From positions 256,265 to 320,264 of the forward strand of contig JADJDU010000003.1 of the NCBI GenBank assembly GCA_016702505.1: 64,000 nucleotides of DNA, given 5' to 3'. The notes below the pieces were generated by a model, which was not told the DNA's origin, ran no database searches, and saw only the letters and a list, made by a program, of their open reading frames with translations. The position numbers and the translations under genes are program-made. This document shows positions 10,158 to 56,578 of the stretch, piece by piece (the first letter of the stretch is position 1; every line of letters begins with the position of its first letter). The stretch is from Microthrixaceae bacterium. GTDB taxonomy: Bacteria; Actinomycetota; Acidimicrobiia; Acidimicrobiales; Iamiaceae.

Positions 10158-10218
10158 GGATGGCAGCCTACGTAGACCTCACGAAACCAGGCACACGACG
10201 TGGTGCCGGGACCGCGGC

Positions 10219-13640: not shown

Positions 13641-13645
13641 ACTCG

Positions 13646-15912: not shown

Positions 15913-15970
15913 AGGAGCTACCCGTGACCGAACCGACTCGAGCGCAAGCGTCGCAGCGATCGACAGACGA

Positions 15971-29282: not shown

Positions 29283-29738
29283 ATGGGTTACGTGATGGTG
29301 CCGGTGCCCGAGGAACACGTCGAGGAAGCGATGGAGGCCGTCCTTCGCATCACGCGCAGCGCTCGACTCACGCCTTGGGATCAGGAATCCATGGATGAGT
29401 TCTGGGCCGGGCTCGACGAGGGGGCCAAGGCCTTGGCTTCGTTGGTTGCCAGGGCAACGCTGGCCAACCGGCAGATCTCCCAGGCATCAGCAGCAGACCG
29501 CATGGAGGTCACCCAACGGGAGATCCTCGGGATCGTGCGAGACGTGAACCACCGAGCCCACGACATCGAAAGGCCCGCGGTCCTGATGGTCCAGGAGGCC
29601 ACCGAGACCCTGGCCAACGGGCGGACCCGGCCGGTTTCCATCGTTTCCACCAACGTGGCGCTGGCCCCCCTGATCCAACAGGCCGAACAGAACGACCTGG
29701 CCGGAGGCACCTCCACAGGGAGCGGGCTTCCGGGGTGA
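29283..29738 (+). CDS. hypothetical small protein, paralog of 49946..50374 (shared N-terminus MG.V.VPVPEEH.EE)
   Basis: 151 aa. Stop overlaps the wzm-wzt start (ATGA). No recognisable domain. Confidence 0.5.
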   Translation: MGYVMVPVPEEHVEEAMEAVLRITRSARLTPWDQESMDEFWAGLDEGAKALASLVARATLANRQISQASAADRMEVTQREILGIVRDVNHRAHDIERPAVLMVQEATETLANGRTRPVSIVSTNVALAPLIQQAEQNDLAGGTSTGSGLPG

Positions 29739-40675: not shown

Positions 40676-40684
40676 GGCCGGAAG

Positions 40685-41311
40685 CTACTTCGACAACGGC
40701 CGGGCGGGAACCCCCACAACGGTCGTTTTTGGAGCGACATCTGTCACTACGACGGCGTTGGCGCCGATCTGGGCGTCCTCACCGATCTTGACCGGTCCGA
40801 TCACCTTGGCACCCGTGCCGATGTGAGCCCGGGCCCCGACGACAGCACCGTTCACATTGCCCTCCTTGAGGCCGATCGTGACCCACGGACGCACCTCCAC
40901 GTGCGGCCCGATCTCTACGATCCCGTCGATCACCACCGCCCCATGGGGAAGGTAGAGCCCAGGAGCGACTACCACCGGATCACCGATGCACACCTGGCCG
41001 ATCATCATGGCCAACCGATGGAGTATCGACGGCAGAATCGGGACCTCGTGAACCTGGAGCGTCGCCTTCAGCCGATAGCAGAGCAAAGCGGCGAAAGCGT
41101 CGCTGCGCCAACAAAGCCTGATCACCTGGAGGACTAGGTCAGTCCGGGACCGAAACTCGTAACGCTCACCCCTGAACAGGCAGAAGATGCGCGCGTCCTC
41201 GCGCACCGCCCGTCTGAACGATGGGAAACGACGCCGGAACTTGCGCATCAGATCCCGACGTTGCGCCTTGGTTGGCCCCGGGGTCGTTGCCTTCACCCTC
41301 CGCCCACTCAT
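40685..41311 (-). CDS. hexapeptide-repeat O-acyltransferase (CysE/WcaB/NodL family)
   Basis: SATase_N-like helical region followed by left-handed beta-helix hexapeptide repeats (IGDPVVVAPGLYLPHGAVVIDG...IGANAVVVTDVAPKTTVVGVPARP). Confidence 0.75.
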   Translation of the reverse strand: MSGRRVKATTPGPTKAQRRDLMRKFRRRFPSFRRAVREDARIFCLFRGERYEFRSRTDLVLQVIRLCWRSDAFAALLCYRLKATLQVHEVPILPSILHRLAMMIGQVCIGDPVVVAPGLYLPHGAVVIDGIVEIGPHVEVRPWVTIGLKEGNVNGAVVGARAHIGTGAKVIGPVKIGEDAQIGANAVVVTDVAPKTTVVGVPARPLSK

Positions 41312-42303
41312 ACGAGGATCGGGACGTAGCGCTCAGGGAAGCACGAAGGCGCGAAGAACCATGACTCCAGGGCGTACCGATCGGCAGTGAACTCCCGCTC
41401 CGACGAAGACCGGTGAACGAAGAAGTCATCGAAGAAGATCGCATCGCCAGGCGCAAACGACGGGGTCTCGGGCGGAGCGTCCACGGCCACCTCGTCGACG
41501 AGACCTTGGCCTATCGAGTTGGGGAAGATCGATCCCTTGGTGCCGGTCTCCAGTATCTCGTTCACCCTCTTGGGCACGATGTCCAAGCCCGGAGCGGGAT
41601 GGTCTCCACCGCAGTGCGACAACGACAGCCACAGGTCGATGGCCCTGATCCCCGCACCGATGAAGGCCCCATCTTGGTGCCAGGTGGGGGCCGATTCCCG
41701 CAGGCGCCGCAGAACGCACTTGTTGTAGGAGAGAGCCGGACGCTCCCCCAGATAGCCGGTCACGGTGTCGATAACGCCTTTGGCCCGAAAGATCTCCAGG
41801 ACCTCCAACATCATCTCTGGCGCATCGGCAACCAACATCCCTCCGACCTCGCGCACCCAGGCTCGTTCGGTGGGGACGCTGGCGGCATCTACCTGGAAGG
41901 GACGGTAGGACCCGTTGCCCTCTGGACCTCCAGCGCTGGGATCGTCGTCTCGGTCTCCCAGCACATCGAGTGCCCGGGCCTTCACCGCCGAGACCTCCTC
42001 GGGGGACAACAAGCCGCGGACTATCACGCCACCGTGGTGGAGGATGCTCCCTCCCACCACGTCAACCGAGATCTGATCAGGAATGATCTCGGGAATCCCG
42101 GTTACCTCAGGGAAGGGATCGGATAGGTCCGGCGGCCAAGATGCCCGCAGCGACGGACCTCGTTCCCGGCCGAAGGCATCATGACGAAGCCTCACGATCT
42201 GGCGGGCAAGGTCAGAGTCGGGGTTGTGGCGGTACTCCTCGGTGAGGATGTCGACCGCCGCCATGACCCGACCCCCACCGTCGGAAACCAACGAACCTGT
42301 CAT
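41308..42303 (-). CDS. PhyH-superfamily Fe(II)/2OG oxygenase, paralog of 39611..40675
   Basis: TWHQDGAF; FFVHRSSSEREFTADRYALESWFF. Confidence 0.65.
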   Translation of the reverse strand: MTGSLVSDGGGRVMAAVDILTEEYRHNPDSDLARQIVRLRHDAFGRERGPSLRASWPPDLSDPFPEVTGIPEIIPDQISVDVVGGSILHHGGVIVRGLLSPEEVSAVKARALDVLGDRDDDPSAGGPEGNGSYRPFQVDAASVPTERAWVREVGGMLVADAPEMMLEVLEIFRAKGVIDTVTGYLGERPALSYNKCVLRRLRESAPTWHQDGAFIGAGIRAIDLWLSLSHCGGDHPAPGLDIVPKRVNEILETGTKGSIFPNSIGQGLVDEVAVDAPPETPSFAPGDAIFFDDFFVHRSSSEREFTADRYALESWFFAPSCFPERYVPILV

Positions 42304-42938
42304 GCGGATGTCCTCCGTGTCGATGCACCCTGGGGCGCCTGATCTTCCGGCGCTATCACCGGGGTCGCCTGGGGTTCCTTCTTGCTGTTTGCGCCCACCG
42401 GACGGGCCGGTACGCCAGCCACCCGACTGTGCGCCGCCACGTCGCCGGTGACCACCGCGTTGGCGCCTATTCGGGTGTGGGCTCCAACCGATGCCGGTCC
42501 GTTGATGACCGCGCCAGTACCAACCCTCACATCGGTCCCGATGGTCACCTCTCCTCCAGAGGAGTCAATGGTGGACCACGGGAACATCACAACGCCGTCA
42601 GCCAGGCGAACCGGTCCGCGTAGGTCCACCTGACCATGGGCCAGGTACAGCCCTGGCCCCACCACCGCTTCGGGCCCGATGTGAACCTGGGCCACGACGG
42701 CGGCGGCCACCTTCATGAGGCGAGGAACCAACGGAACGCCATGCTGGCGGGCAGAGGCCCCAATTCGGTAACAGACCTGGGCCAGGTAGGCATCGCTTTC
42801 GAGAGCGAGCCTCACCATCTGCCCGGCGGTCACCCAACGGTTGCCCATGCGGTGGTACTCGCCCCTGAACCGGGCCGCGGCTCTGGCATCCGCGACCAAG
42901 GCCGAAACGAGCGGCGGCGATTCAGAGTTGGTGGGCAC
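42300..42938 (-). CDS. hexapeptide-repeat O-acyltransferase (CysE/WcaB family), paralog of 40685..41311
   Basis: Hexapeptide repeats ...IGANAVVTGDVAAHSRVAGVPARP. A 4-nt overlap couples it to the downstream oxygenase. Confidence 0.75.
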   Translation of the reverse strand: MPTNSESPPLVSALVADARAAARFRGEYHRMGNRWVTAGQMVRLALESDAYLAQVCYRIGASARQHGVPLVPRLMKVAAAVVAQVHIGPEAVVGPGLYLAHGQVDLRGPVRLADGVVMFPWSTIDSSGGEVTIGTDVRVGTGAVINGPASVGAHTRIGANAVVTGDVAAHSRVAGVPARPVGANSKKEPQATPVIAPEDQAPQGASTRRTSA

Positions 42939-43079
42939 GATGGTGTGATCTACCGGCGGGCTGACGGACGGGGACCATCCCGGGACCAGGGAGGTGGGGG
43001 GATGGTAGCGGGAGCACGACGGTTGATCCGCGTGACATCGGGCCCTTCTGGTCGGGTCCTTTTGACCTACCGCCCGAGC

Positions 43080-43922
43080 TCAACCCAACGGCTTTCGCCA
43101 GTACGCCCCGGTCCAATCCACCGGGTGGATCTCGGCCTCTATCGAATGCTTCTTCCGATAGTCGTGAACCGCCTCCTGGCAGGCAGGAATGCAGCCGTAG
43201 TCGTCGATGATGACGAACCCGCCGGGTGAGACCCGCGGCTCGAGGTTGACCAAGGCGTCCATGGTCGACTCGTAGAGATCTCCGTCGAGCCTAAGGACAG
43301 CGACATCACCTATGGGAGCGGTGGGCAGGGACTCGGAGAACCACCCCTCCACGAACCTGACCTGGTCGTCGAGCAGGCCATAGCGGGCGAAGTTCGCCTT
43401 CACCTGTTCGACCGATACCGCCAACCCCAGGTCCAGAATCGCCTTGGCATCGGGGTTGGAGACCTGCATGGATGCATCAGCCGGGTAACGGTCCGGGTCT
43501 GGTTCGGGCAGGCCTTGGAACGAATCGCACACCCATACGGTTCTGTCGGTGACACCGAGGGTGGCGAGTACCGCCTTCATGAGAATGACCGTGCCCCCAC
43601 GCCACACCCCGGTTTCGACGAGGTCACCTCGAACCCCCTCGGCGACAACTCGCCTCACCAGAGCCTCGACGTTGTCCAACCGGGCCCGGCTCACCATCGT
43701 CTCAGCGCTTCCCGGTATCCAGTCCTGGCCGATCGTCGATCGATCATCAGCGCTCATCCGTCGCACCAGCCGCCACCCGTTGGCGTGAAGAACATCCCAG
43801 ACATCGTTGGGGGGGCCAAGGACCTCACTTGGCTGCCAGTGCAAGACATCGAGGACCTCATCGTCGGGGAAGAGGTCTCGGGTCAGGCAACCCTTCAGTA
43901 GGTCCAGGTATCGCTGGGCCAT
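43080..43922 (-). CDS. TylF/MycF-family class I SAM-dependent sugar O-methyltransferase
   Basis: MAQRYLDLLKGCLTRDL...TMVSRARLDNVEALVRRVV...GDLVETGVWRGGT...VWVCDSFQGLPEPD...VLRLDGDLYEST...GFVIIDDYGCIPACQEAV closely matches TylF/MycF. Confidence 0.8.
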   Translation of the reverse strand: MAQRYLDLLKGCLTRDLFPDDEVLDVLHWQPSEVLGPPNDVWDVLHANGWRLVRRMSADDRSTIGQDWIPGSAETMVSRARLDNVEALVRRVVAEGVRGDLVETGVWRGGTVILMKAVLATLGVTDRTVWVCDSFQGLPEPDPDRYPADASMQVSNPDAKAILDLGLAVSVEQVKANFARYGLLDDQVRFVEGWFSESLPTAPIGDVAVLRLDGDLYESTMDALVNLEPRVSPGGFVIIDDYGCIPACQEAVHDYRKKHSIEAEIHPVDWTGAYWRKPLG

Positions 43923-44027
43923 CGCGTTGTCGCCGGTTGGAGGATCAATGGTGGGGCTGGGCACGGCGGGCAGGATAGATCGCTCAGAGCACACCGATCG
44001 GTTCGTTGTGGCCCGGCACACCTGGGC

Positions 44028-45172
44028 TCACGGGGTGTCGCCGTCGCCACCTTCGCCACCCTGGTTCGCCATGAGGTGAGCGATCAGCTTCTGACGCACC
44101 TCCTCATTGGTCTCAGCCAACTGGGCGAACAGGATCTTCTCGTGCTCCTCGATCGAGACGGTGGTGAGGGTCCAGCCCTCCCGGCCGTGAGCAGCCCCGG
44201 GACCACCCCGATACGGCACCGCCGGAGCATCATCGACCACGAAATCCCACTCGGCATAAAAGTCCTTACGAGTCCAAGCCAACGTCGAAGGCGTCTCACC
44301 CGGACGCTGAGTCCGCAACGGCCCCACGAACACCTGACCCAACCCAACCCCAGAACCAGCACCCATCAAACCAGGCGGCGGACGATCGAAATACGTCCGC
44401 CAATACCGCTCCGAGAAGAACAACGCGCAGTAATCCAACCGGTGGTACTCATCGATGAACATGTACCCGTCATCGACCAGATACGGCCACAAACCAATCA
44501 CACACTCATGGAAACTGGACTGATAATCCACATCCACATACGCACACACGATCGGCTCAGAGTGCGAACCCATCGTGTCCGAGAACCACCCCTTACGGAA
44601 CTCACACACCTCCACCGCCCCAAACCGCGTGACGTTGGAACGCACCTCCTCCAACTCACCCTTGAACGCCCCCTCACCCATCTCACTGGCCCAATGATCG
44701 CCCTCCACCGCCGGCGGCAACCCTTCGAAGCTGTCATAGACGATCAAGCTCCGACCCGCCGCCTGAGCGATCAACGACAAGTTCGCAGTAGTACCACCCT
44801 TCCAACACCCCGCCTCCACCATCACACCTCAACCGAGCGCGGCACCGACAACACCTTCGCCGCAATGGCCAGATGCCCCCGATAGCTCAACCCGGTCTGG
44901 ATCTTGGTCGTGTTCCGACGCATGCGTCGCGCCAACCCGAACCGCTTACGCCACGTCAACCCGTGCGAAGGATCGATCGGAGCCCCATAGAACAAGAACA
45001 ACGTCAAATGAAACCACGACGCCGCCTCATAGGCGTCCGCAACCCGCCTCACCAACCGCGTACGCCGACCTTTCGAAAAACGCTGCGAAACCGCGGCCCG
45101 AACACGCCGACGAAGTCCAAACCCCTTAGATGACACGAGGCGCGACCGTAGTGCCCCCCTGCCACCGCGCAC
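44028..45172 (-). CDS. TylF-family O-methyltransferase, apparently split by a frameshift at ~44822 (C-terminal part 44028..44825; possible N-terminal part 44822..45172)
   Basis: C-part: VEAGCWKGGTTANLSL...IVYDSFEGLPP...DVDYQSSFHECV. The upstream ORF ends ...LAIAAKVLSVPRSVEV* with its stop overlapping the C-part start codon (ATGA). The N-part match to TylF is weak. Confidence 0.5.
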
Positions 45173-45191
45173 GGCGGCTGACCGCCAACCG

Positions 45192-47144
45192 TCAAGGAGC
45201 CGTCAGCGACACGTGGAACATCGGATCTCGACCAGGGTGATGGCCGATCGAGGGTCCTGGGTGGTCAGGAATCCTCGACTGCCCGGCCAGGCAGAAGCCC
45301 AGCCCGATCGGACCAGCGGTCGGACGAACCGGTGCCGATCCCAACTGCACCGACGGCCAGTCACTCGCCGGATCACCCCCCATGAAGGTCGGATCCGACC
45401 CCGAGGCGACCAGCACCGCCACCCACCACCGGACGCCGGCGTCGAGCACCACCGCATCCACAAGCGCCGCCCCGAACACCCCCGACCCTTCCAGCTCGAT
45501 CCCCGCTGGTCCGGTAGAGGTGACCACCGCACCTGGCCGCCCATCCGCGGCGGTGGACACCACTGCGGCCGTCACCGAAACACCGGCCTGCGCCGACACC
45601 ACTTCCAACCAGATGTCGGTGGCCCGGGCCGGTGCCGCCAGCACCGGCAACGGCATCCACATCACCACACCTCGCTCCAGCACCGTCCCGACCCCTGACG
45701 CCCGCAGCGACGAAACGGCGCATGGGACGGGGGCCAGGAATCCTCCCTGGCTCCCCATCGAGTTGGCGAGAACCGTGGTTGCGCCTCCCGGAAAGCTAGC
45801 GATCAACTCGGCCCGCCCCCCGGTGTCCCGAGCGGTGAGCACCGGGTCAGGCAATCCGGAATCCACCCGTTCGGCAGGGGTCAACCGCAACCGCGCCAGA
45901 TCTACCTGCCCGGATCCACTGTTGACGGCCAAGCTCCCGACCCCCGCCCGGGAGAGGAAGGTGTCCATCGGCATGGAGCCGCCGGGTCCAAGCCCAAGGG
46001 TGGGGCCTGGGAGCCCAATGAGATCCAGGACAGGACGAGACGCTGACAGGCCCCAAGCCAGCTCCGGATCATCCTGGTGTACCCGGCCGGCCAGCACCGC
46101 TCCACCCAGTTTTGTGGAGACCGAAATGGTCCCAGCGCCTGGGCTCCACTCCTGTTCGCGGTGCAGCGAACTGACCACCTGCGATAGCAGTGATGCAGCC
46201 ACGATTCCGGGGGCGATAGCCGCGGCAGCATGACCCGCAGCGATCGCCGACGTGATCGATGCCGGATGGACACCGTCGAGCGTCGGGAGCCGGCCAAGAG
46301 CACCGGCTCCATCGATCAGCAGGCACCCCAGGCGTTGGGCCACCCGACGTCCCGCCTCGGCGTGGTCCGGTGTGAACTGCGAGCTGATCGGGGCCAACCA
46401 AAGGGCAACGTCCGTCTCTGGGCGCCGCGCCTGGATGCCGGTGACCAGCCGGGAGACATCGCCCTCATAGTCATCATCGTTGGTGCCGGTGCCGACCACC
46501 ACCAGGTCCGGTCGGATCGTGTCCAGAGCATCGAGAACCCAGCCGGGGTTCTCGAGGAAATCGAGGCTGGTGCTTCCACTGCGGACGGCGGGCCAGACCC
46601 TCACTCCCTGGTGCGCGTTGTGCTGGTGGACGTAGACGCCCTCCAACACCGAGGTACCCCCCTGAGATTCGATCACCAACTCCACCGGAGACGATCCGTC
46701 GGACCTGGTGAACAACGAGAGTCGCGAATGAGCCACGACCCCCTCCGTGTCGATGACGCCCATGACGCCGTCACCCCAAGTGACCCTCAACTGACCGGCA
46801 TCGGGTCGACGCGTCCAAACGACGGAGAGGGCTTGACCGCCAACCTCGACCCGCGCCCTCTGACCCACCTCCAGCAAAACCGACCGACCGCCGAGGCCAC
46901 ATTCCGGGTCCGGAGGTGCCCCTGCCGCGCTGGACAACGGGTTCACGTAGGCGTTGTCGCTGGCCCTGCGGTACTGGACGGTCTCGACCCGATTCGAGAG
47001 CAGCTCACCGAGTTGCCACGGAATCGGGTTACCCGTCGCGTTCAGCTCGCTGATCGAGTCTCCGAGCCAGATGATGTTCGCTATCGCCGAGCCCGCTTGG
47101 GCGTCACGGAGCTTCGCCGCCCAACGGGACTCCTCGATCAACAC
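45192..47144 (-). CDS. SGNH/GDSL hydrolase-family protein with ~350-aa Gly/Ala/Val-rich C-terminal extension
   Basis: Block I IIWLGDSISE, block III VVVGTGTNDDD, block V DGVHP. C-terminal half is repetitive, small-residue-rich and of unknown fold. Confidence 0.65.
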   Translation of the reverse strand: MLIEESRWAAKLRDAQAGSAIANIIWLGDSISELNATGNPIPWQLGELLSNRVETVQYRRASDNAYVNPLSSAAGAPPDPECGLGGRSVLLEVGQRARVEVGGQALSVVWTRRPDAGQLRVTWGDGVMGVIDTEGVVAHSRLSLFTRSDGSSPVELVIESQGGTSVLEGVYVHQHNAHQGVRVWPAVRSGSTSLDFLENPGWVLDALDTIRPDLVVVGTGTNDDDYEGDVSRLVTGIQARRPETDVALWLAPISSQFTPDHAEAGRRVAQRLGCLLIDGAGALGRLPTLDGVHPASITSAIAAGHAAAAIAPGIVAASLLSQVVSSLHREQEWSPGAGTISVSTKLGGAVLAGRVHQDDPELAWGLSASRPVLDLIGLPGPTLGLGPGGSMPMDTFLSRAGVGSLAVNSGSGQVDLARLRLTPAERVDSGLPDPVLTARDTGGRAELIASFPGGATTVLANSMGSQGGFLAPVPCAVSSLRASGVGTVLERGVVMWMPLPVLAAPARATDIWLEVVSAQAGVSVTAAVVSTAADGRPGAVVTSTGPAGIELEGSGVFGAALVDAVVLDAGVRWWVAVLVASGSDPTFMGGDPASDWPSVQLGSAPVRPTAGPIGLGFCLAGQSRIPDHPGPSIGHHPGRDPMFHVSLTAP

Positions 47145-47156
47145 GGTTCGGAGTTG

Positions 47157-49829
47157 TCAGTTGGCCATCCCGTGCGCGGCCAGCGTCCGCTCAACGGGTG
47201 AGTGCAGCTCCCAGTGGAGGTACTCGTCAATGTCGGTATCGAAACCCAGTCCGATATCGCAGAGCCGGTGAGGATCCTCAACCGTGAAGGAGGCAGGACC
47301 ATAGGACTCCAGCGGAGGGACGTGGTCGGCCCAGTCTGTCCTGTGCCCGGAATCTTTGGCCTTCAACACGTCGCGGTACCAGGCTCCGACATCGTGACCC
47401 ACCTCGATCGTGTAGGGGAACTTCCGACCCTGGGCGGGGAGGACGGCATGTTGGGCCGCCAAGACAGCATCGAGCCCTGAACCAGGCGGCACGCCGAGTC
47501 GCTCGACCGCGAAGCGCCCCATCTCGTCGATGAAGAGGCGCCAGCTCACGGGAGGCACCATGGTCACCGGCACCACCCGGGTAGCGGTGGTGATCGTGGG
47601 GTAGGCCTCCGGCTCGTTCTGGGTCAGCTCTCGCAACGCCTCGATCAGGTCTGCTTCTCGCAGGCCAACGGTATGGCGCAGATACCTGGCCGTGAGGCGC
47701 AACACCGCGAAGTTCTCCATCAGGCGGAACACCGCTCGGAGCTGGAGCATCACGTCGTAATCCTCCCGGGTGAAGCTGGAGGACGAGACCACCAGCGCAC
47801 GTCCGAGTCCTGCTGACCCCCGAGACGGGATCGCGGGCGACGGCGATCGGTCGATTCGCTCGGTCCGGATCTGGTTCTCAGTCCTGTAGGACGGTTCGTT
47901 CATCGGGCTGTTGATCAGCATCTCGGTCTGGAAGACCTTTGCGTTGATCTCACGATCTATGCACTGCTGGAAGTCCTCTCGCACCGAGGCGGTCGTAGCT
48001 CCGGGTAGACCGATCATGAGATCAACCATCAGCGGAAGCTGGGCCTGGCGGAACTCACGGGCGAGATCGTCGTACTTCTCGACCTTGATGTTCTTCCGCC
48101 GAATGGTGGCCAGCGTGTCGTCGTCCATCGACTGCAACGAGAGAAGCCCTTCGGTGACAACGCCAGCTCCGGCCATCACCTGAACGATCTTCTGAAGGTA
48201 CTTGACCGTGTTCTTGGCGTAGTTGGTGACGAAGCTTCCGGGATAGCCCTTGGTCGTATACAGCTCCGCGACCTTCTCCGCGATCTGGACGTCCTGGTCG
48301 AAGATGCCGAAGTTGGCGTCGCAGAGGAAGATCTTCTCGACCTTGTTGTCTGCGCACCACTCGAGCTCCGCGAAGATCCGCTCCAGGTCGAACTTCCTGA
48401 TCCTCGAGGCAGTGCTCGATCCCCAGTCGCAGTAGGTGCAGCTGTAGGGACACCCACGGTTTGTCTCGATCATGGCCGTATTGATCACACCGCCACCGAA
48501 CGGCTCGTACAGGCCTGTCAGATACGGCGATGGCACCACGTTGATGTCGGTCAGCCGGTCGCGGTCCGCCGTCCGCACGACGCCATTGGGGCCTCGGTAA
48601 CTCAGGCCCGGCACCGAATCGAGGACCGAGAGGTCTCGCTCCTCGTCATCTCTAATGGGTGCCAACGCGGCCAACAGCTCGGCAAAGGTCACCTCGCCTT
48701 CGCCATGGACCACCACATCGATGAACGGGTTGGCAGCGAAGTAGGCCTCGACATCGCCCGGGTACTTGGGGGAGTCGGGTCCGCCATGGATCGTGATCGC
48801 CCTCGAGCTGCGATCCTTGATGATCTTGGAGCTCTCCAGGTTGACGCCGTGGGACCACACGTAGTTGCTGAACATGAAGACCGAGCCGTCGTCTATCAGC
48901 GACTCAAGCACGTCCGGGTACATGAAGGTGGCCGGGAGGAAGTCGTAGCTCTCCAAGAGCTGACCCTCGTTCCATGCCGATGCATATGACACCAACATCC
49001 CGAGTGACAACGGCATGATCAGCTGGTCATAGATCGGGATGACCGCAGTTCGGCGAACACCGGTCTCCGCCTGCTGGGCGTAGCGCTGCTCGATTCGATC
49101 TTCGAAATCAGATCGCAGGTGGGCCTGGGTTTCGATCGCCTTGGCGAACAGGTGACTAGCAATGAACTCCTGGCGAGAGGAGGTCTGCATCGACTCGGAT
49201 CGTCCGACGATGCGCGATGCCAGGAGGATCCCGGCCGTTTCCATGAAACGGTCCTCAGTCAGCGCCGCCCGGCCCGCCTGCTCGACGTGGGCCGCAAAGG
49301 CCGCCTCGACCGATTGCGAGGTGCTCAAGTTCACGGCAGCGAGCACCTGAGCTGCGCTCAACACCGCCCGGACACCTCCGTCGTGGTCGAGCGCGTAGTA
49401 GCTGCCATCAGCCACCGTCAAGAGGATCGGGCTCCCGATGTCGAGATTGTCAGACATCGCTACTGCTTCGGCTGCCCCCTGTCCCTCCGACGAACCGCGG
49501 GACGGCACCACCGCTCTGTTGGAGCCCTCGACCAACTTGCGCTCCCGCAAGTAGAAGAGCGTGACGTGAAGGTCGAATGCGGGCACGCTCCAGTCAGCCG
49601 ATATCTCCTCGATCAGGGGAGAAACGTCTCGAACCTCGGGCCCCGACAACTCAGCCATCAAGGCTAGATCGGCACCGGCGATCACAATCTCGGGAAGCAT
49701 GTCGATCTTGGGAATGCACACTCCTTCGCGACGGAGCATGACGGTGGCGAAACGGCTGAGCCGCGCGCCGTCTGCGGATGATGCTTCAGAGTGTTGGCTC
49801 TCACGCGTAGTTGAGATGTCGGTCATCAA
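47157..49829 (-). CDS. B12-binding radical SAM enzyme (class B rSAM) with ~250-aa N-terminal and ~250-aa C-terminal extensions
   Basis: Cobalamin-binding region (ITIHGGPDSPKYPGDV...VVVHGEGEVTF) followed by IETNRGCPYSCTYCDWG (CxxxCxxC). Confidence 0.85.
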   Translation of the reverse strand: MMTDISTTRESQHSEASSADGARLSRFATVMLRREGVCIPKIDMLPEIVIAGADLALMAELSGPEVRDVSPLIEEISADWSVPAFDLHVTLFYLRERKLVEGSNRAVVPSRGSSEGQGAAEAVAMSDNLDIGSPILLTVADGSYYALDHDGGVRAVLSAAQVLAAVNLSTSQSVEAAFAAHVEQAGRAALTEDRFMETAGILLASRIVGRSESMQTSSRQEFIASHLFAKAIETQAHLRSDFEDRIEQRYAQQAETGVRRTAVIPIYDQLIMPLSLGMLVSYASAWNEGQLLESYDFLPATFMYPDVLESLIDDGSVFMFSNYVWSHGVNLESSKIIKDRSSRAITIHGGPDSPKYPGDVEAYFAANPFIDVVVHGEGEVTFAELLAALAPIRDDEERDLSVLDSVPGLSYRGPNGVVRTADRDRLTDINVVPSPYLTGLYEPFGGGVINTAMIETNRGCPYSCTYCDWGSSTASRIRKFDLERIFAELEWCADNKVEKIFLCDANFGIFDQDVQIAEKVAELYTTKGYPGSFVTNYAKNTVKYLQKIVQVMAGAGVVTEGLLSLQSMDDDTLATIRRKNIKVEKYDDLAREFRQAQLPLMVDLMIGLPGATTASVREDFQQCIDREINAKVFQTEMLINSPMNEPSYRTENQIRTERIDRSPSPAIPSRGSAGLGRALVVSSSSFTREDYDVMLQLRAVFRLMENFAVLRLTARYLRHTVGLREADLIEALRELTQNEPEAYPTITTATRVVPVTMVPPVSWRLFIDEMGRFAVERLGVPPGSGLDAVLAAQHAVLPAQGRKFPYTIEVGHDVGAWYRDVLKAKDSGHRTDWADHVPPLESYGPASFTVEDPHRLCDIGLGFDTDIDEYLHWELHSPVERTLAAHGMAN

Positions 49830-49945
49830 GTTCCCCTACCAGGCACACCTGGAACCTGCGCCCGTTGGCGCTGTGGACAGGATCCCACCCTATCGCCGGG
49901 TCGGGCCCGATGCCGATGGGCCGGGGCCCAAAGGTCGCAGGTGGG

Positions 49946-50374
49946 TCAGTCCCCTTCAGCCACGTCAGGGACGTGGGCGAGTATTCGCCGGGCCAGCGAG
50001 GGGATGATGTAGATCAGGTTCTCGACTTGATGCCCGTCGCCGCCGTCGGAGTTCACCTTTGCTTCCATCACGAGGCAAGGAGCGAGATCTCGGATCTGAA
50101 AGGCACCGTTGATGTTCAGCGCCAGCCCGTAGACCTCACCCACGCTCGAGGCCGTGACCGCCGCTATGGAATCGCAGGAGAGCAACTCGCGGCGCGCCGA
50201 TGCCCGACAGATGACGTCGAAGACCGTCCGCTCGTCATCGGTCAAGCTCAGGCGAGTCTCCACCACCGAATCGATCTCGTGGTCGGACATCCTCGTGGAG
50301 ATGAGGTGTCGGATCATCTGCCGACTGAACTCCTCCGCGTGTTCCTCGGGGACCGGAATCAGAACGTCACCCAC
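49946..50374 (-). CDS. hypothetical small protein, paralog of 29283..29738
   Basis: MGDVLIPVPEEHAEEF... versus MGYVMVPVPEEHVEEA.... Sits ~120 nt upstream of the rSAM gene on the same strand. Confidence 0.5.
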   Translation of the reverse strand: MGDVLIPVPEEHAEEFSRQMIRHLISTRMSDHEIDSVVETRLSLTDDERTVFDVICRASARRELLSCDSIAAVTASSVGEVYGLALNINGAFQIRDLAPCLVMEAKVNSDGGDGHQVENLIYIIPSLARRILAHVPDVAEGD

Positions 50375-50478
50375 CGGTCAGGATCCCTTGGGGGCGGCCG
50401 AAGTCATGCTCCCATCCTATTAGGCACCTGAGCGATAGGTCCGGTAGTCGTCGCTACCAGGTTGATCAGACCGGGGGA

Positions 50479-51402
50479 TCAGGGGCGGCGTTCGATCGCC
50501 AGTCGGGCGCAGTGGTCGAGCATCTCCAACGCCGGGTCCGGCATTCGTCCGAGGTGAATCGGGTCAGCCGTCAGCTCCCGGAATGGGGCGCCACGAAGCG
50601 TCTGGTACTGGGCGTCCATGTCGGCCCAGGTGAACCTTCGGGACGTAGCCGCACCGCCATGGATCTGGTGGAACGTGCCCTCGGCCAGGAGCTGGACCAG
50701 TGTCGTGTCATCCCGCTGGCAGGCCCGCAGGTAGAGGTCGTGGTTCACCAGCCCGCCTCCGGGTAGGTCGAAGGCTTCGTCATAACCCCCGAGGTCAGTC
50801 CACAGATCGCGACCCATGAAGAGCGAACTGCTTTCGCTCTTGGCGCCGAACCAACCCCGATGCGACGAGCCCGCCAGGGTGGAGCAACCGAACAGCCGAT
50901 AACCGTCCTTCGTCCACTCCACCTGCTCCAACAACGCGTCCTCGACGGCCTGGTCATAGCCAGCTTCGGCCGCCTTCATGTGGGTGGTGGGTCCAAGGTG
51001 GTATGCGGGAGCGGTCACCACCGCACGGTCTGCCACTCGGTCACCGCGAATGGCCATTGCCAGCAACCCAGGAGATGCCAATCGAGCACCATCCATCACC
51101 ACCCCGACCAGCGACCCGCGGGCCGCCTCGATACCGATGTTGGCGGCACGTGCCGGCGATGCCGGGGCCGGGTCGAGCCTGATCAACCTGGCATCGAGCA
51201 CCGAGTCTGCGACGATCCGATCCAGCGGCTCGGGGGAGCCGTTGTCGACGACGACCACCTCGTAGTCGTCAGGATCGACCTCTCGTTGGTATCGGGGAGA
51301 CAGGCTGTAGAGGGTCCGTGGCAGTTCGCGACCCATTCCGTAGGCCACCACCACGACGGTCAGGGCCGGGCGTCGTTCCTCGCCCCCGGCGCGAAGCGTC
51401 AC
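50479..51402 (-). CDS. GT2 glycosyltransferase, stand-alone paralog of the GT2 domain of the giant enzymes
   Basis: TVVVVAYGMGRELPRTLYSLS...YEVVVVDNGS and W.KDGYRLFG...GGYDEAFDLPGGGLVNHDLY parallel aa ~600-850 of 36188..39583. Confidence 0.8.
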   Translation of the reverse strand: MTLRAGGEERRPALTVVVVAYGMGRELPRTLYSLSPRYQREVDPDDYEVVVVDNGSPEPLDRIVADSVLDARLIRLDPAPASPARAANIGIEAARGSLVGVVMDGARLASPGLLAMAIRGDRVADRAVVTAPAYHLGPTTHMKAAEAGYDQAVEDALLEQVEWTKDGYRLFGCSTLAGSSHRGWFGAKSESSSLFMGRDLWTDLGGYDEAFDLPGGGLVNHDLYLRACQRDDTTLVQLLAEGTFHQIHGGAATSRRFTWADMDAQYQTLRGAPFRELTADPIHLGRMPDPALEMLDHCARLAIERRP

Positions 51403-51415
51403 CGATTCCGGACCT

Positions 51416-54400
51416 TCATCGCACCCGGCGGAGGTACCCGCCGGGGTTGAAGGAAAGGTGGTACTTCTCCATCTTGGGATCGGGGGCGAAGTTCCCGTTG
51501 CGAGCCAGGATCTGCTTCACGGCCTCAGCCGGGCCAGGACCGAACCCAGCCCACACGGGGTGACCGTTTACCACCGTGTCAGCGATCACAACGTAAGAAC
51601 CGACTGGCACGAGCGGCGCGTACCGCTCGAACTCCTCAGATGTCGTGTGACGGTCCACCAGGGACCCGAGCACGACCAAAGCCGTCCCCCCGGCCACCCG
51701 TCGATGCACCTCCTCGGCCACATCTCGGTGATGCGGGCGACCGGTCAGGTGCTCGAGACGGGGGTGTGTCGGTCGACCATCGCCATCGGATGGGTCGACC
51801 GACAAGACCTGCCCGTGTCCGATCAGTTCGCAGATCGAGGCCAACAGGATCGAACGACCGCCGTCCTTGGACCCGGTCTCGATGATCCAATCGGGTCGCA
51901 CCGTCGAGATGATCTCCTGATAGGCGACGAGGTCGGTGGGAGGCGTCCGGGTCGACTGACCCAACCAAGTCGTGTCCTCCCAAGGCATCGCGGCGTAAAC
52001 CGACTCGATGAACGCCTTGCCCAACTCCTCGGGCATGGGCCGGGGAGCCATCGGAGGACCGTCCACCCCACCGGCTGCGGCAGCAGCGTTGAACATCTCG
52101 GCCGACATCCGTCGAGGCCTGGTACGTCGGGCGGGCTGAGAGCGGATCGCCCCTACGTAGTGAACCGGCTTGCCCGGTCCGTGGAAGGCCCTACCCCTGA
52201 GATCCGCGTACTGCTGGCTGTAGTCGAAGACCTTGGTCCGACGCTCGGCGGCATCGACTCGGTTGGTGGTGTCGCCCCCGTGCAACTGGTGGAACGATCC
52301 CTCACCCAAGATGGTGGCCACAGTGATGTCGGGACCGCCCGCCAAGCGCTCGTACAAGTCGAGGTTGGCGAAACCAGCACCCGGAAGGTCGAAGCTCTCG
52401 TCGAACCCTCCGACCTGCTCCAGCGTCTCTCGCGCCACGAACAGGCAGTTGCTCTCCCACAGCCCGTCCAGCCAGTCTCGGTCACCGATGAAGTGACTGA
52501 TCTCGAACAGGCGGTAGCCGTTGGTGGGCCAGGCGATCTGCTCGAACAGCCGATCCTCGTATTCACGGTCGTAGCCGGCAGCCATGGCATCGCCCTGCTG
52601 ACCGGGACCGACGTACCACTGTTGGGTGGCCACGATCGCCGGTGCATAGGTGGCGAGTCCAGCCAGTCCCCAGCGGAGGACTCCCGGAGTCACCACGTGG
52701 GCTCCATCGATCATCAGCGCGAAGTTGCGACCTCGTCCCGCACGGATTCCCGCGTTGAGAGCGTTGACCGGAGACGGATGGATCGAGTCGAGCGACAGCA
52801 GGCGGAACTCGGGGCCGAACTCGGACACCAGGTCGGCACTCAGGGCCTGGCCGGGCCCGGATCCGTTGTCGATCACCAACACCTCATAGGTGATGGCGTC
52901 CACGCCGTCTTGGTACGACCTCGACAACGAGTGGAGCGTCCGACGAGCCTCACGAGCCATGTTGTGGAAGACCACTACGACGGTCAGATCTACCTGGTCA
53001 CCCGGCGCGGGAGGAGCCAACGGCGCGCGAGGTAGATCGGCCTGGGGGGCGATGTCCAGAGCGCTCTCGAATGGCTCACCCCCGACCTTGCGCCACACCA
53101 TCAAGCCGTGATCCCGGTGATCACACGGGCCGGTAAGACCTCGGCGCGTCCGGAACTCCTCCACCGAACGGCGGGTCTCGGACTCCTCGCTGGCATCGAC
53201 GACCACGAACCCACCCACCGGGATCCGGCGGTAGAGCGCATCGAGCACCAACCCGGCATCCGCCCCGGTGTCGTGCCCCAGCCTCAACATGGCGACCTGT
53301 TCGATGTCGGCATCGGCCAACGACGCCTCGAGCTCACCCGACAGGAACTTCACCCGAGCGTCGAGCAACCCGAAGCGGGTGAATCCATCTCGGATCAGGT
53401 TCAGATCGGCGCGGAAGTCGGCCACGCCCCGCTCGGTCCATCGGGCTGACTTGAGCCCTTCGGGAGCGGCTCGGAAGCGGTCCACCACCCACACCTTCTG
53501 GTCCTTCAGGTCGTAGGCGTCGAGCCAGGCCCGAAAGAAGATGCCAGCACCTCCGCGTCCTACCCCGACGTCGACCAGATCGCCGGGTACGGCCTCTGCC
53601 TTGACGGTCTCGAGGCGACCGTGAAGATCATCGAGGCGGGCTCGTCCCATGTCGGTGTAGGGCACGAAGGAACGTCCGCGACCATCGTCGGGGCCGGCAG
53701 GCCCGAGCCGCTCGCGGGCCAGGCGAGGCCAGACCTCGGGGTCTTGGCGCACCGGGTCCCGCAGTATCCGGGCGTCGGGGGCCCGCCCGGCTTCGATCCG
53801 GGCAGCGAGGTGCGCCAGTCGGGCTTCGTCTTCCAGGTAGTGCTCGTTCAGCAGCGCCGCCTTGACCGTGCCGAGGTAGCGGGCCACCAGCCGTAGCTCT
53901 CGGGCAAGGGCCGGGAAGTGAGCGTTGTGCTGGAACACCATGGCCTGGAGACGGAGACGTTCCCCCAACTCCAAGAGCAGATTGCGTCCTTCCACACCCT
54001 CGAGGCGGTCGAGCACCGAAGCCAGATCCGGCTGTCGGGCCAGCCGCTCCTCGGCCACCACGATGGCCAGCCCGAAGTAGACGGGCAACACCACCAGCCG
54101 CACTGGCTCGTCGTAGCCAGCTATCCAATCCTCCAACCCGGTCATGACACCGTTGCGGGGTCCGCCCTCGTGCGTGGCGTTGAAGTGATTCGGGTTGAGT
54201 CCCGATGCACCCTTTGCCAGCTCGTTGCGATCGAGGTGGACTCCCTTTTGGGCATACGGCTGACGGAACTCGGCTGGCACCGTGTCCGGCGAGTAGTAGA
54301 GGTCGCGACGGCCGTAGGGCCAGCCGACATCATGGAGGATCATGATGGGTAGCTCGGCCCCCAAAGACCGGTTCCGCTCCGCCAGGAGCCGACACTCGTT

Positions 54401-54696
54401 GTACACCGTGTACCAGTTGTGATCGCCGTCGATCAGCGCTGCATCCATGGCCGGCAGTTCACCGAGGACATCGACGCTCAGGGCTCGGTGGAACACGTAC
54501 TGACCGGCGAACTCCCGTTCATGCTCGGCGGGATCAAACGCCGGCTTCGGGTCGATCACGTGTAGCTCGGTCTCAGGCCCGAGCGTCTCGATGATCTGGC
54601 GGGTGTTCTCTCCCCGGAGGGCACCGATCTCGACCAGGCGTTTGACTCCGCCCGCCTCTAGCACGGGAGCGATGACGTCGTTCCAGAAGGGGAACA
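51416..54696 (-). CDS. giant four-domain MTase / MTase / GT2 / MTase enzyme, paralog of 36188..39583
   Basis: Track ORF 51416..55099 carries a spurious 134-aa N-extension. The real start MFPFWNDVIAPVLEAGGVKRLVEIGALRGENT... is about 70% identical to the paralog over the first 200 aa, with the same domain order through the CmcI-like C-terminus (VAYQEIISTVRPDWIIETGSKDGG). Confidence 0.85.
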
Positions 54697-54845
54697 TCGG
54701 CGGGGCGCGATTCCTTGACCGGGTTTGGGACGGGCGGACCCTAGCGCGGCGGGGAACGGGCGGGGCCGACGGCCAAAGAGCCGCACGGGTCACAGCTCCG
54801 GCCATTACCGGAGCCTTTCTGGTCGGGCGTGGTATCGATTTGGGG

Positions 54846-56578
54846 TGAGCACCGTCACCTACTCCGACTCCGCCGCAGACGGGACCGGGAGCTACACGGC
54901 CGAGTCGGCGATGGCCACCTCCCCGTCGGCACGGACCGCTCGCTGGGCGGCGTGGACATTCGGTGTCTACGTGGCAGCCGCTTTCCCTCTCATCCTGTTC
55001 GGACTCGGTCGGTACTGGTGGTTCTTCCGTGACGACTGGTACTTCGTCGCCGAGCGTGACATCTCCGTCGACGGACTGATGCAGGATCACAACGGTCACT
55101 GGTCATCCGTGCCGGTCGCAGCCTTCCGGCTCGCCTACGTCGTCTTCGGAATCCGGTCGTACATGCCGTATCAGGCGATGGTGGTGGTGGCGCACCTGGC
55201 TGTAGCGGTCTGCATCCGGATGATCATGCGTCGGTACGATGTGAACCCGTGGCTGGCAACGGTGGCGGCAGGTGCGCTCGTGCTCTTCGGTTCGGGCCGC
55301 GAGGACATCATCTGGGCCTTCCAGATCGGCTTCACCGGTTCACTGGCCTTCACCCTTGCCCAATGGGTCATCGCCGACCGGCCGGGCCCGGTGCGCCGGA
55401 GCGACTACCTGGCTCCCGTGTTGGGCACGTTGGGGCTTGCGTCTAGCAGTCCGGCGCTGATGGTCATGGCTGGTCTGTCGGTCACCCTTTTGGTCCGACG
55501 AGGTTGGAAGCCCATGGTGATCAACGTGGGCCCGCCCGCCCTCGCCTACCTGGTGTGGTCGGCCTTGATCCACCCCGACAGGAGTAGCCCGTGGGGACGC
55601 CCCGGACTCGGCGAATACCAGGACTGGGTGACCACCGGCGTGCGGGGCGTGTTCGTCGAGCTCACCGGATTTTGGTGGGCCGGAGCGATCCTCGGTCTTG
55701 CCGTCGCCGTCGGGATCGCCATGGCGGTCCTGAGGCCCGGGACCGACAGCACCAGCTCCAGCGACCGCGGCGATGAGATACACGGCTCCTCCAGCCGCGT
55801 CGTCAGAACGGTGGCGTCGGCCCGCTTGCGGCTGACACCGATCATCGGACCGCTGGCCTTGTTCGGATCGACCATCCTCTTCATCCTGGTGGCCGCCCAG
55901 CGTGCCTGGCTGTTCGGGCCCGGTGCGGCCGTGGCCAGCCGCTATCTGTACGCGTACGTGGCCCTGTCCCTGCCGCTGATAGCGGCGTCGATCCAGTCGA
56001 TCTCACGGTGGTGGCGACCAGCCGCCGTTGCGATTCCTGCGCTGCTGATCCTGGGGGTACCTCACAACATCGCGCAGTTCGAGGACACCGTTTTCAGCCC
56101 CGATCACCACGACCACCAGGGCAGGCTGATCCTCAACGTCCTGCGCCATCCGGCCGCGGCCAACGCACCAGATCGACTTCGTCCCGATCCCGACGTGTTC
56201 AACTCCCAGAGCCTGACCGTGGGCTTCCTCCGCAGAGCCGCAACCGAGGGCAAACTCCCGGAGGTGTCGGGACCCATCCCCGCCGACATCGATGCCGAGT
56301 TGACGGTTCGGTTGGGGCTCATGCAAGAACTCGGTGACTGGCGGGTGGTCCCTTGCCAGGCGACAACAGTGGCCCACCTCGAGCCGACGGTCGGCATGGT
56401 CTTCTTCCTGACCGAGCCAGTGCTGGTGACTCCCCGCTCGAGTTCGGGCCAGCGCTTTCCGGTGGAAGTCACCCCCGACGACGGGGCCATCGTGACCGTG
56501 GTCGCGCCAGGCCTCGATCTCGACCTCACCAGCCAGGCGAGACCTGGTTCCCCCGCTTCGATCTGTGTCGTCAACTAA
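54846..56578 (+). CDS. polytopic membrane protein (>=11 TM), putative GT-C-type glycosyltransferase or glycan-processing membrane enzyme
   Basis: Hydrophobic helices throughout the N-terminal 400 aa (FRDDWYFV loop motif after TM1), then a soluble ~180-aa C-terminal domain. Start is GTG ~54846 or ATG 54908. Confidence 0.55.

Follow-up and report, generated by a model that had tools for sequence, protein, structure and literature searches.

A TokK/CysS-type cobalamin-dependent radical SAM enzyme with tandem RRE-like modules in an Acidimicrobiia glycan operon, a candidate C-methylase of glycan substituents

Judged by its sequence and predicted fold, the 890-aa protein encoded in a glycan locus of the window (the whole 64,000-nucleotide stretch of Microthrixaceae DNA analysed here) belongs to the clade of cobalamin-dependent radical SAM enzymes formed by TokK, ThnK, CysS and KedN5, and is of the class B methylase type, as had been proposed in the initial annotation of this DNA. 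Our preferred reading, which we hold with moderate confidence, is that the enzyme most likely C-methylates a substituent of a glycan or of its precursor and that the 142-aa gene upstream of it is not its conserved partner. It is a member of a large uncharacterised family of ~870-aa proteins that is present in Acidimicrobiia and marine Gammaproteobacteria and reaches six tandem copies per locus. The features of the locus are collected in Table 1.

Table 1. Genes of the locus and domains of the radical SAM enzyme (window positions; residues refer to the 890-aa protein)
Feature	Position	Strand	Basis and remarks
Giant protein Methyltransf_24-TylF-GT2-CmcI	51416..55099	-	Pfam; upstream of radical SAM gene
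GT2	50479..51402	-	Pfam; upstream of radical SAM gene
142-aa diverged paralog of the 151-aa small-protein family	49946..50374	-	keeps N-terminal motif M-G-D-V-L-I-P-V-P-E-E-H; other family signatures missing
Cobalamin-dependent radical SAM enzyme gene	47157..49829	-	ORF 890 aa; KedN5/TokK/CysS matches, N-terminal extension
N-terminal module 1, residues ~21-96	49542..49769	-	beta3-alpha3, RRE-like winged helix
N-terminal module 2, residues ~129-204	49218..49445	-	beta3-alpha3, RRE-like; motif G-F-E-x-L-D-H-D-G
Long linking helix, residues ~211-256	49062..49199	-	DSSP on AF2 models; joins RRE-like pair to cobalamin domain
Cobalamin-binding Rossmann domain, residues ~259-445, lower-axial Trp W325	48495..49055	-	alignment to TokK W76, CysS W75
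Radical SAM core, residues ~446-655	47865..48494	-	Pfam PF04055 E 6e-16, residues 455-620
Cluster motif codons C460/C464/C467	48429..48452	-	CxxxCxxC = C460-x3-C464-x2-C467
C-terminal domain, residues ~656-890, TokK/CysS type	47160..47864	-	Foldseek whole-TokK alignment, TM 0.72
SGNH/GDSL-like protein, 650 aa	45192..47144	-	Pfam; downstream
Two TylF-type O-methyltransferases	43080..44825	-	Pfam; downstream
Two hexapeptide acyltransferases	42300..42938, 40685..41311	-	Pfam; downstream
Two PhyH-type dioxygenases	41308..42303, 39611..40675	-	Pfam; HxD...H motif read; downstream
Canonical 151-aa small-protein family member	29283..29738	+	translationally coupled to exporter gene
Fused Wzm-Wzt ABC exporter (ABC2_membrane + ABC_tran)	29735..31378	+	Pfam

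The open reading frames are real, and that of the enzyme has a product of 889 aa if translation begins at the ATG at 49826, the likely true start, as in P0001. The radical SAM core described in the initial annotation was borne out by the Pfam match, and both its three cluster cysteines and the surrounding motif ETNRGCPYxCTxCDWG are invariant in an alignment of 32 homologues. The cobalamin domain had been called canonical, which holds for its kind and not for its Pfam profile: PF02310 gave 13.7 bits, below the cut-off of 32.1 (E 0.058), and despite this the sequence is clearly that of a Rossmann cobalamin domain of the TokK/CysS type, with a W325 that is invariant in the 32 homologues and that aligns with TokK W76 and CysS W75 in the PDB sequence alignment. 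In those 2 enzymes this tryptophan lies beneath the cobalt as the lower-axial residue (PMC12846815; bioRxiv 10.1101/2021.07.10.451909), and it is not widely conserved beyond them according to the TokK paper (bioRxiv 10.1101/2021.07.10.451909).

Searches with the whole enzyme agreed on this kinship. KedN5 (NF033712) was the best NCBIfam family (E 5.5e-74; next family 1e-16), with a score of 249.5 bits that is far under the cut-off of 700 and a match limited to residues 316-740. The PDB sequence search, in which the alignment reaches residue 740, returned TokK (E 1.7e-65) and CysS (2.7e-55) well ahead of the next structure (4.5e-10), and the PDB profile search returned TokK at E 5e-101. When the AF2 model (pLDDT 87.5, pTM 0.87) was compared with the PDB using Foldseek, TokK aligned over its entire length (E 4.5e-36; CysS 2e-31), with alignments of 658-712 columns against chains of 658-664 residues and a TM-score of 0.72 (normalised to TokK) that includes the C-terminal domain. 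The C-terminal ~250 aa, taken earlier for an extra region of unknown function, therefore correspond in the model to the C-terminal domain of TokK and CysS, the part by which the substrate channel is closed; conserved residues within it are W763, Q793, R802, D813, W817, W833, D852 and R881.

The N-terminal ~258 aa are, in the predicted structure, the sole addition relative to TokK and consist of 2 modules and a helix, so that the enzyme departs by 258 residues from the three-domain architecture of ~620-680 aa of the TokK/CysS clade. DSSP on the AF2 model assigned strands 21-24, 29-32 and 37-39 (48-50) and helices 52-61, 69-80 and 84-96 to module 1, and strands 135-140, 143-147 and 153-157 and helices 159-170, 174-188 and 192-204 to module 2, in both cases with pLDDT >90, and hhalign detected the internal repeat with a probability of 94%. 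Module 2 is the better conserved, its HMM being detected in 69 of the 123 family ORFs scanned, and we know of no description for RREs of a hairpin such as its conserved L-D-H-D-G. The modelled fold points to a tandem RRE-like (PqqD-fold) pair akin to those of ThcOx, TigE and NisB. PqqD (PF05402) found no match in 43 module sequences at E <=10 in a Pfam search, a PDB profile search with the N-terminal module retrieved no RRE protein, and every Foldseek match of the N-terminal model in the PDB had E >=0.09, with RRE structures at 0.1 or worse. The initial annotation was right that this region is additional, and its description as being of unknown function gives way to a predicted RRE-like pair. 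Both terminal extensions had been described as being of unknown function; they resemble accessory domains of characterised non-glycan enzymes (TokK/CysS for the C-terminal one, RiPP enzymes for the N-terminal one), the kind of resemblance named beforehand as refuting the initial interpretation.

The polysaccharide setting noted earlier was confirmed by the Pfam content of the neighbours and by their arrangement, an unbroken minus-strand gene string from 55099 to 39611 with gaps of at most 141 nt (4-141 nt among the downstream genes). No terminator-like site was found on the minus strand in 47000..51600, and the radical SAM gene is apparently co-transcribed with glycan biosynthesis and export genes. 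From the gene content, the product of the locus is probably an ABC-exported, O-methylated, rhamnose-containing glycan.

The family amounts to more than 540 proteins in a word-limited protein search and to at least 598 matching stretches in species-representative genomes, and since it has cultivated carriers (Halioglobus japonicus, Arenimonas caeni and Marinicella litoralis) its function is open to experiment. The closest homologues, with 56-59% identity, lie in the same type of locus; the upstream gene layout of the window is also found in L001, PhyH and hexapeptide homologues flank the radical SAM arrays of L014, L018 and L033, and a GT2 homologue stands directly upstream of a radical SAM gene in L033. 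Of 32 Actinomycetota loci, 15 have at least 1 homologue of the window glycan genes within 10 kb, as have 14 of the remaining 44; in about half of the Actinomycetota set none lies within reach, although many such contigs are short. When the neighbourhoods of the 76 genome loci were clustered, no one partner proved to be conserved, and the largest cluster that was real, a Wzt-like ATPase, covered 15 loci. The glycan link does not extend to the family as a whole, because gammaproteobacterial members occur away from glycan genes: in Halioglobus and Marinicella the gene stands alone among housekeeping genes, and in Alteromonadales and Kangiellaceae it adjoins a TonB receptor, a SAM methyltransferase and an S9 prolyl oligopeptidase.

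By homology, a first SAM would methylate cob(I)alamin and the [4Fe-4S] cluster (C460/C464/C467) would cleave a second one to yield a 5'-deoxyadenosyl radical, which would abstract hydrogen from an unactivated sp3 carbon, the resulting substrate radical then taking the methyl of methylcobalamin. The reaction may be repeated on one substrate, because sequential methylation is common to all biochemically characterised relatives, TokK, ThnK and CysS (PMC12846815; bioRxiv 10.1101/2021.07.10.451909): TokK performs 3 sequential sp3 C-methylations (bioRxiv 10.1101/2021.07.10.451909), and CysS iteratively converts an O-methyl group into ethoxy, isopropoxy, sec-butoxy or tert-butoxy (PMC12846815). The C-methylation of a sugar suggested in the initial annotation is a reasonable hypothesis, and the presence in one operon of O-methyltransferases, PhyH dioxygenases, acyltransferases and glycosyltransferases makes C-methylation of a glycan substituent the most likely activity. 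Candidate targets would be an O-methyl group (as in the chemistry of CysS), the methyl of an N- or O-acyl group or a deoxy-sugar carbon; the neighbouring O-methyltransferases and the CysS-like core make methoxy groups plausible substrates. A partner or carrier may dock on the RRE-like modules.

The small upstream gene had been proposed to encode a substrate carrier or adaptor. It does have, as was noted earlier, a paralog just upstream of the Wzm-Wzt exporter (29% identity, E 2e-10), and the 2 copies have a conserved N-terminal motif in common. The exporter-side copy, whose stop overlaps the start of the exporter gene, carries the motif M-x-Y-V-M-V-P-V-P-E-E-H and all the signatures of the family (P-W-D, D-E-x-x-R-x-L-L, R-E-V-x-G and L-P-N-G-R) and matches the family HMM at E 3e-55, versus 2.4e-32 for the copy beside the enzyme, which, overall similarity apart, retains none of these features but the N-terminal motif, is 142 instead of ~151 aa long and, unlike the canonical copy, is not directly upstream of the exporter. 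Pfam and NCBIfam returned nothing for either protein, the family being unnamed and without a model in both, and a word-based search for homologues of the 142-aa protein alone found only itself; the family was recovered only by exhaustive profile search. Among 80 metagenomic small-protein loci, retrieved with a narrower family alignment, an exporter homologue was present in 54, directly downstream in 29 of the 42 loci with enough sequence, versus a radical SAM homologue in none. From the enzyme side, only 1 of 76 genome loci contained a family member, and it was absent from the 2 closest, L002 and L003. In L033 a family member lies between 2 radical SAM genes, and this arrangement, the same-strand adjacency in the window (116-nt gap) and the motif common to both paralogs are what speaks for a carrier or adaptor role; the protein shows no carrier features, and the PDB matches of its central region are helix-turn-helix-like (FixJ, sigma-28, MarR) and too weak to be used as evidence (E 0.08-0.4). 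We therefore consider a carrier role for the radical SAM enzyme very unlikely, and the co-occurrence counts show no conserved partnership. The family is tightly linked to the exporter, of which it is a possible adaptor or accessory, and by these sequence comparisons the 142-aa gene is best described as a diverged duplicate of the exporter-associated protein. Its being a free-standing copy of the enzyme's N-terminal module was also considered and rejected (hhalign probability 4%, small-protein family against enzyme N-terminus).

Peptides are the usual ligands of RRE-like domains. This speaks for a substrate or partner that is a peptide or protein, and the enzyme could accordingly be a peptide or protein C-methylase in which the RRE-like pair binds a recognition sequence of a ribosomal peptide or protein, as RiPP maturases do, and the core methylates side-chain carbons, the substrate being encoded elsewhere or being the adjacent small protein. 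Class B peptide and protein methylases exist (the NCBIfam RiPP C-methyltransferase families, for instance, match the window enzyme weakly), distant family members have the peptidase, methyltransferase and TonB-receptor neighbours described above, and both the window and L033 have radical SAM genes next to a gene for the small protein, which is most conserved in its N-terminal motif. However, a scan of the genome loci for conserved small ORFs (30-170 aa) within 1.5 kb of a radical SAM gene yielded none that was genuine, only artefacts read out of frame or antisense from paralogous copies of that gene; the small-protein family is missing from 75 of 76 genome loci just as the radical SAM gene is from the 80 small-protein loci; the modules lack a PqqD/RRE sequence match and a convincing Foldseek score; the nearest catalytic relatives (TokK, CysS and KedN5) act on small molecules and not on peptides; and the window enzyme and its closest homologues show strong operon linkage to glycan genes. 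On balance we judge a peptide or protein substrate less likely than glycan C-methylation, of which it is a serious competitor. Not all class B enzymes are methylases, and a rearrangement, ring contraction, dehydration or cyclisation of a sugar, as with OxsB, BchE or AprD4, would fit the weak matches to BchE (E 9e-17), AprD4 (E 7e-15; PDB 6fd2, E 4.5e-10) and OxsB, AprD4 being a diol dehydratase acting on an aminoglycoside sugar. TokK, CysS and KedN5 match better than these by 40-60 orders of magnitude, and with the TokK/CysS-specific lower-axial tryptophan and the TokK-type C-terminal domain both conserved we give such chemistry little probability.

C-methylation of a glycan substituent, the reading we prefer, can be extended into a more speculative and rather improbable scheme, in which a RiPP-style recognition device has been recruited to glycan tailoring. 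Through its tandem RRE-like domains the methylase would attach to a protein partner, for example to the conserved N-terminal beta-strand motif (V-x-V/I-P-V-P-E-E) that the exporter-associated small protein carries, the core would iteratively extend O-methyl or acyl groups of sugars to ethyl- or isopropyl-type branches before export, and the arrays of up to 6 tandem paralogs in related genomes would diversify the decoration. The outcome would be alkoxy-decorated polysaccharides, of which we know no description.

To our knowledge, all methylases of the TokK/CysS type described so far belong to antibiotic pathways, in which they assemble small alkyl branches on substrates linked to pantetheine. 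If the glycan reading is true, a widespread sister family, with its fused RRE-like domains, its place in Acidimicrobiia glycan export operons and its up to 6 tandem copies, would extend this chemistry to cell-surface polymers, and the RRE fold would gain a function beyond RiPP biosynthesis; should the substrate be a peptide, a RiPP-like or protein-modification system would lie hidden within apparent polysaccharide loci. In either case, the annotation of the small gene is corrected, since it belongs with the Wzm-Wzt exporter.

Among known systems, class B methylases of the GenK, GenD1 and Fom3 types use cobalamin radical SAM chemistry to C-methylate unactivated carbons, in the case of GenK on an aminoglycoside sugar; they are absent from the significant matches in the NCBIfam, PDB profile and PDB sequence searches, and TokK, CysS and KedN5 are far closer to the window enzyme. 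The N-terminal modules recall the tandem or fused PqqD folds of the RiPP recognition elements of ThcOx (5LQ4), TigE (8VPO), NisB, MibB, TbtB, PbtF and TfuB1, from which they differ in having no sequence similarity to PqqD/RRE models, in that no precursor peptide was found, and in being joined to a TokK-like enzyme of class B whose gene lies in a glycan operon.

CysS (cystobactamid alkoxy groups; PDB 9N1B-D) and KedN5 share the three-domain core and the tryptophan (W75 in CysS) and lack RRE-like domains, and CysS acts on aromatic thioesters. TokK and ThnK (carbapenem C6 alkylation; PDB 7KDX, 7KDY) have the same cobalamin Rossmann domain with its W76, radical SAM core and C-terminal domain, and TokK shares the motifs CDW(215)G and NFAKN/NYAKN with the window enzyme at ~26% identity over ~480-700 positions. 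Because the substrate-contacting R280 of TokK, which together with Y652 holds the pantetheinylated carbapenam, and the gate residue W271 of CysS both map to V534 in the PDB alignment, the substrate of the window enzyme is expected to differ from theirs. Unlike the window enzyme, TokK (681 aa) has no N-terminal extension, and its gene lies in an antibiotic cluster, whereas that of the window enzyme lies in a glycan operon.

Both the 890-aa ORF and the 142-aa ORF upstream of it were found where the initial annotation had placed them, on the minus strand with 116 nt between them; their third-position GC of 0.79-0.80 marks both as coding. The large ORF opens with TTG-ATG, and P0001, an identical protein in the database, has 889 aa, so translation more likely starts at the ATG at 49826. 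The paralog proposed upstream of the exporter is also real (29% identity, E 2e-10), its stop overlapping the start of the exporter gene. In an independent assembly of the same organism (Logan contig L001), gene calling splits the small gene before the radical SAM gene into two ORFs (79 and 65 aa), a frameshift difference from the single intact ORF in the window.

Coordinates of the features discussed, in the window or, where a handle is given, in a related locus
Feature	Coordinates	Remarks
tRNA-Lys gene	13565..13640	integration site
Region of the mobile element	13565..23354	
Tyrosine integrase	13733..15325	
TrwC-type relaxase-helicase	15683..19315	1210 aa
Repeats of the tRNA 3' part	22373..22424; 23303..23354	52 nt; 98% and 96%
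Glycan locus	26-63 kb	RmlA, RmlC and RmlB-type genes, Polysacc_synt_2 gene; two giant Methyltransf_24-TylF-GT2-CmcI proteins; additional TylF O-methyltransferases, GT1 and GT2 enzymes, sulfotransferase-GT fusion; two hexapeptide acyltransferases, two PhyH-type dioxygenases; one SGNH-like protein
Split glycosyltransferase gene	27220..29219	frames 27223..28428 and 28260..29183
Canonical small-protein gene	29283..29738 (+)	151 aa
Fused Wzm-Wzt ABC gene	29735..31378	
SPFH/Band-7 protein	31400..32602	
Inferred operon	55099..39611	
TylF-like ORF	44028..44825	
Overlapping ORF	44822..45172	116 aa
Radical SAM gene	47157..49829 (-)	
Diverged small-protein gene	49946..50374 (-)	
Giant ORF and divergent ORF	51416..56578	1227 aa and 617 aa
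Divergent ORF	54725..56578	617 aa
Split small gene, L001	2090..2519	
Radical SAM array, L040	3666..20445	six consecutive copies
Radical SAM array, L014	2310..15526	four to five copies
Radical SAM array, L018	9926..20361	four copies
Receptor-peptidase set, L073; L049	2972..11788; 5576..13915	Alteromonadales, Kangiellaceae
Radical SAM/SPASM protein, L003	8551..9618	355 aa

Clade-level homology, conserved cofactor residues and fold make it highly probable that the enzyme is a TokK-like cobalamin radical SAM methylase. Pfam matched only its radical SAM core, at residues 455-620 (E 6e-16), where the expected CxxxCxxC cysteines (C460, C464 and C467) are invariant. The cobalamin domain, initially described as canonical, fell below the threshold of the Pfam B12-binding model (E 0.058), but W325, invariant among 32 homologues, upholds it by aligning with TokK W76 and CysS W75, the residue under the cobalt (PMC12846815; bioRxiv 10.1101/2021.07.10.451909). 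According to the TokK authors, this Trp is not widely conserved beyond TokK and CysS, so W325 marks clade membership. Among NCBIfam families, the KedN5 family of methylcobalamin-dependent radical SAM C-methyltransferases matched residues 316-740 (E 5.5e-74) with a score of 249 bits, well under its cut-off of 700, and BchE followed at E 9e-17. Comparison by sequence with solved structures retrieved TokK (E 1.7e-65, or 5e-101 with the family profile), CysS (2.7e-55) and then AprD4 (4.5e-10). The AlphaFold2 model, built on 32 homologues, was confident (pLDDT 87.5, pTM 0.87), and Foldseek aligned it with TokK over 658-712 columns on 658-664 residues (E 4.5e-36, TM 0.72 on TokK) and with CysS (E 2e-31). 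Since the former alignment spans the whole of TokK, the C-terminal ~250 aa, to which no function had been assigned, are not an unknown extension but the TokK-type C-terminal domain, described as distinctive in the TokK paper. TokK W215 (in CDWG) is kept as W469, whereas V534 replaces both TokK R280, which contacts the substrate, and CysS W271, which gates the channel, so that the substrate is expected to differ from those of TokK and CysS.

At the other end, the large extra region held up as such: TokK, CysS and KedN5 all lack anything corresponding to residues 1-258, which fold prediction resolved into two modules (residues ~21-96 and ~129-204) resembling the RiPP recognition element (RRE), joined to the cobalamin domain by a 45-residue helix in the AlphaFold2 model. 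The modules form a homologous pair (hhalign probability 94%, E 1e-7, 74 columns), and module 2, with the hairpin G-F-E-x-L-D-H-D-G, is the better conserved. Both modules run beta3-alpha3, the order by which PMC12710340 defines an RRE structurally. Structural matches also included MccB, TglI, LynD and McbB; Foldseek with the N-terminal model put the same proteins on top but at E 0.1 or worse, as in the 210-column alignment with ThcOx, a protein that has a tandem pair. By their fold the modelled modules can be called RRE-like; that they bind peptides is hypothetical.

The gene content around the enzyme agreed with the polysaccharide-locus setting originally proposed. The genes between the operon limits lie on a single strand with gaps of at most 141 nt, and the surroundings of the radical SAM gene showed no terminator-like site in that orientation, from which we infer one operon. 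Within this stretch, the TylF-like ORF matches only TylF profile positions 95-240, and is preceded by an overlapping ORF; it may represent an O-methyltransferase paralog that has been truncated or has suffered a frameshift. In the 1227-aa giant ORF, a low-complexity stretch of ~130 residues at the beginning overlaps the divergent 617-aa ORF and is probably not translated, a start near M-F-P-F-W-N-D being likelier; the 617-aa ORF lacks a Pfam match, and 6 of the 76 radical SAM loci contain a homologue of it. Directly upstream of the canonical small-protein gene, a frameshift splits the glycosyltransferase gene: residues 3-402 of a 662-aa homologue (L004) align in one frame and 345-656 in another, so that the gene is a pseudogene or the assembly is in error. 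A mobile element integrated at the tRNA-Lys gene ends about 3 kb short of the glycan locus; in it the integrase is followed by the relaxase-helicase, and GC falls to 0.56 at 20-22 kb; the two tRNA 3' repeats suggest an element of ~8.8 kb plus a tandem remnant of ~0.9 kb.

Full-length homologues of the enzyme (~860-900 aa) numbered at least 540 at E <=1e-10 in a word-based protein search, mostly from Acidimicrobiales MAGs, and species-representative genomes held at least 598 stretches matching the family. Its carriers are Acidimicrobiia (Microthrixaceae, Aquihabitans) and also many marine and soil Gammaproteobacteria (Halieaceae, Lysobacterales, Alteromonadales, Kangiellaceae), with Halioglobus japonicus, Arenimonas caeni and Marinicella litoralis among the cultivated ones. 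Module HMMs found no N-terminal modules in more distant members; there the Cys motif is reached after ~430-480 residues of the ORF, compared with ~205 in TokK, and an N-terminal region of similar length therefore appears general in the family. Two or more copies occurred in 26 of 78 loci, the largest arrays consisting of paralogs arranged head to tail almost without spacers.

The closest homologues (56-59% identity; L002 and L003) are surrounded by TylF-GT2-CmcI giants and by TylF, PhyH, hexapeptide and GT2 genes, and the arrays of L014, L018 and L033 have PhyH and hexapeptide genes as immediate neighbours. Across 76 genome loci, one or more of the window's glycan genes had a homologue within 10 kb in 15 of 32 Actinomycetota loci and 14 of 44 others, most commonly the ABC exporter and PhyH. 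The glycan link is not universal, however: in Halioglobus and Marinicella the gene sits amid housekeeping genes such as aroB, a SPOR-domain protein and TonB, and in Alteromonadales and Kangiellaceae its conserved neighbours are a TonB-dependent receptor, a UbiE-like SAM methyltransferase and an S9 prolyl oligopeptidase. In L003, the closest NCBI homologue locus, the class B gene is followed directly by the convergent gene of a radical SAM/SPASM protein; SPASM enzymes often modify peptides.

The initial annotation had suggested that the small proteins may be substrate carriers or adaptors; the adjacency of one of them to the radical SAM gene in this window proved not to be a conserved association. 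As a lone query in a word-based search the 142-aa protein matched only itself, while a profile of both paralogs gathered 222 cluster representatives (E <=1e-3), and a larger collection held more than 320 proteins, nearly all of exactly 151 aa and from Acidimicrobiia. These share a strikingly conserved N-terminus (M-P-Y-V-M-V-P-V-P-E-E-H-V) and the signatures P-W-D, D-E-x-S-R-S-L-L, R-E-V-x-G-I and L-P-N-G-R-T; the copy before the exporter is canonical, and the one beside the radical SAM gene has diverged after duplication and keeps mainly the N-terminal motif. The family matched no Pfam or NCBIfam model, and a profile search of solved structures gave only weak helix-turn-helix-like similarities. 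In 80 metagenomic loci (431 kb) with a small-family member, no radical SAM homologue was found, whereas a Wzm-Wzt homologue occurred in 54, and the exporter gene followed directly on the same strand in 29 of the 42 with enough downstream sequence; giant methyltransferase-GT proteins accompanied 14 of 20 loci of at least 8 kb. Conversely, the small protein was not found in L002 or L003 and appeared in one of 76 radical SAM loci (L033, where it sits on the opposite strand with a radical SAM gene on either side), and no conserved small ORF was found within 1.5 kb of radical SAM genes in the genome loci scanned. These counts show that the small family goes with the Wzm-Wzt exporter. Homologues of the SPFH protein that comes after the exporter gene occur in 19 of 80 small-protein loci, and an order of glycosyltransferase, small protein, ABC exporter and SPFH protein appears conserved.

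If the enzyme is a TokK-like methylase, we lean slightly towards a substrate from the glycan pathway of its own operon. A peptide or protein substrate recognised through the RRE-like modules is a less likely but serious alternative; the receptor-peptidase set of Alteromonadales and Kangiellaceae points that way, as it looks peptide- rather than glycan-related, and the glycan genes beside the closest homologues fit a sugar substrate. The remaining probability falls to a different chemistry or to different substrates. For a glycan substrate, the relatives offer a specific guess: sequential methylation is common to TokK, ThnK and CysS, and the last of these extends O-methyl groups, as has also been proposed for KedN5. 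Together with an operon rich in O-methyltransferases, this makes it attractive that the enzyme might extend sugar methoxy groups; alternatively, it could extend acyl methyls put on by the hexapeptide transferases. The catalytic type, a cobalamin radical SAM methylase, is already known. In the literature searched, no description was found of its fusion to two tandem RRE-like modules, of a family of this size and distribution, of the amplification into tandem arrays or of a location in operons for glycan export.
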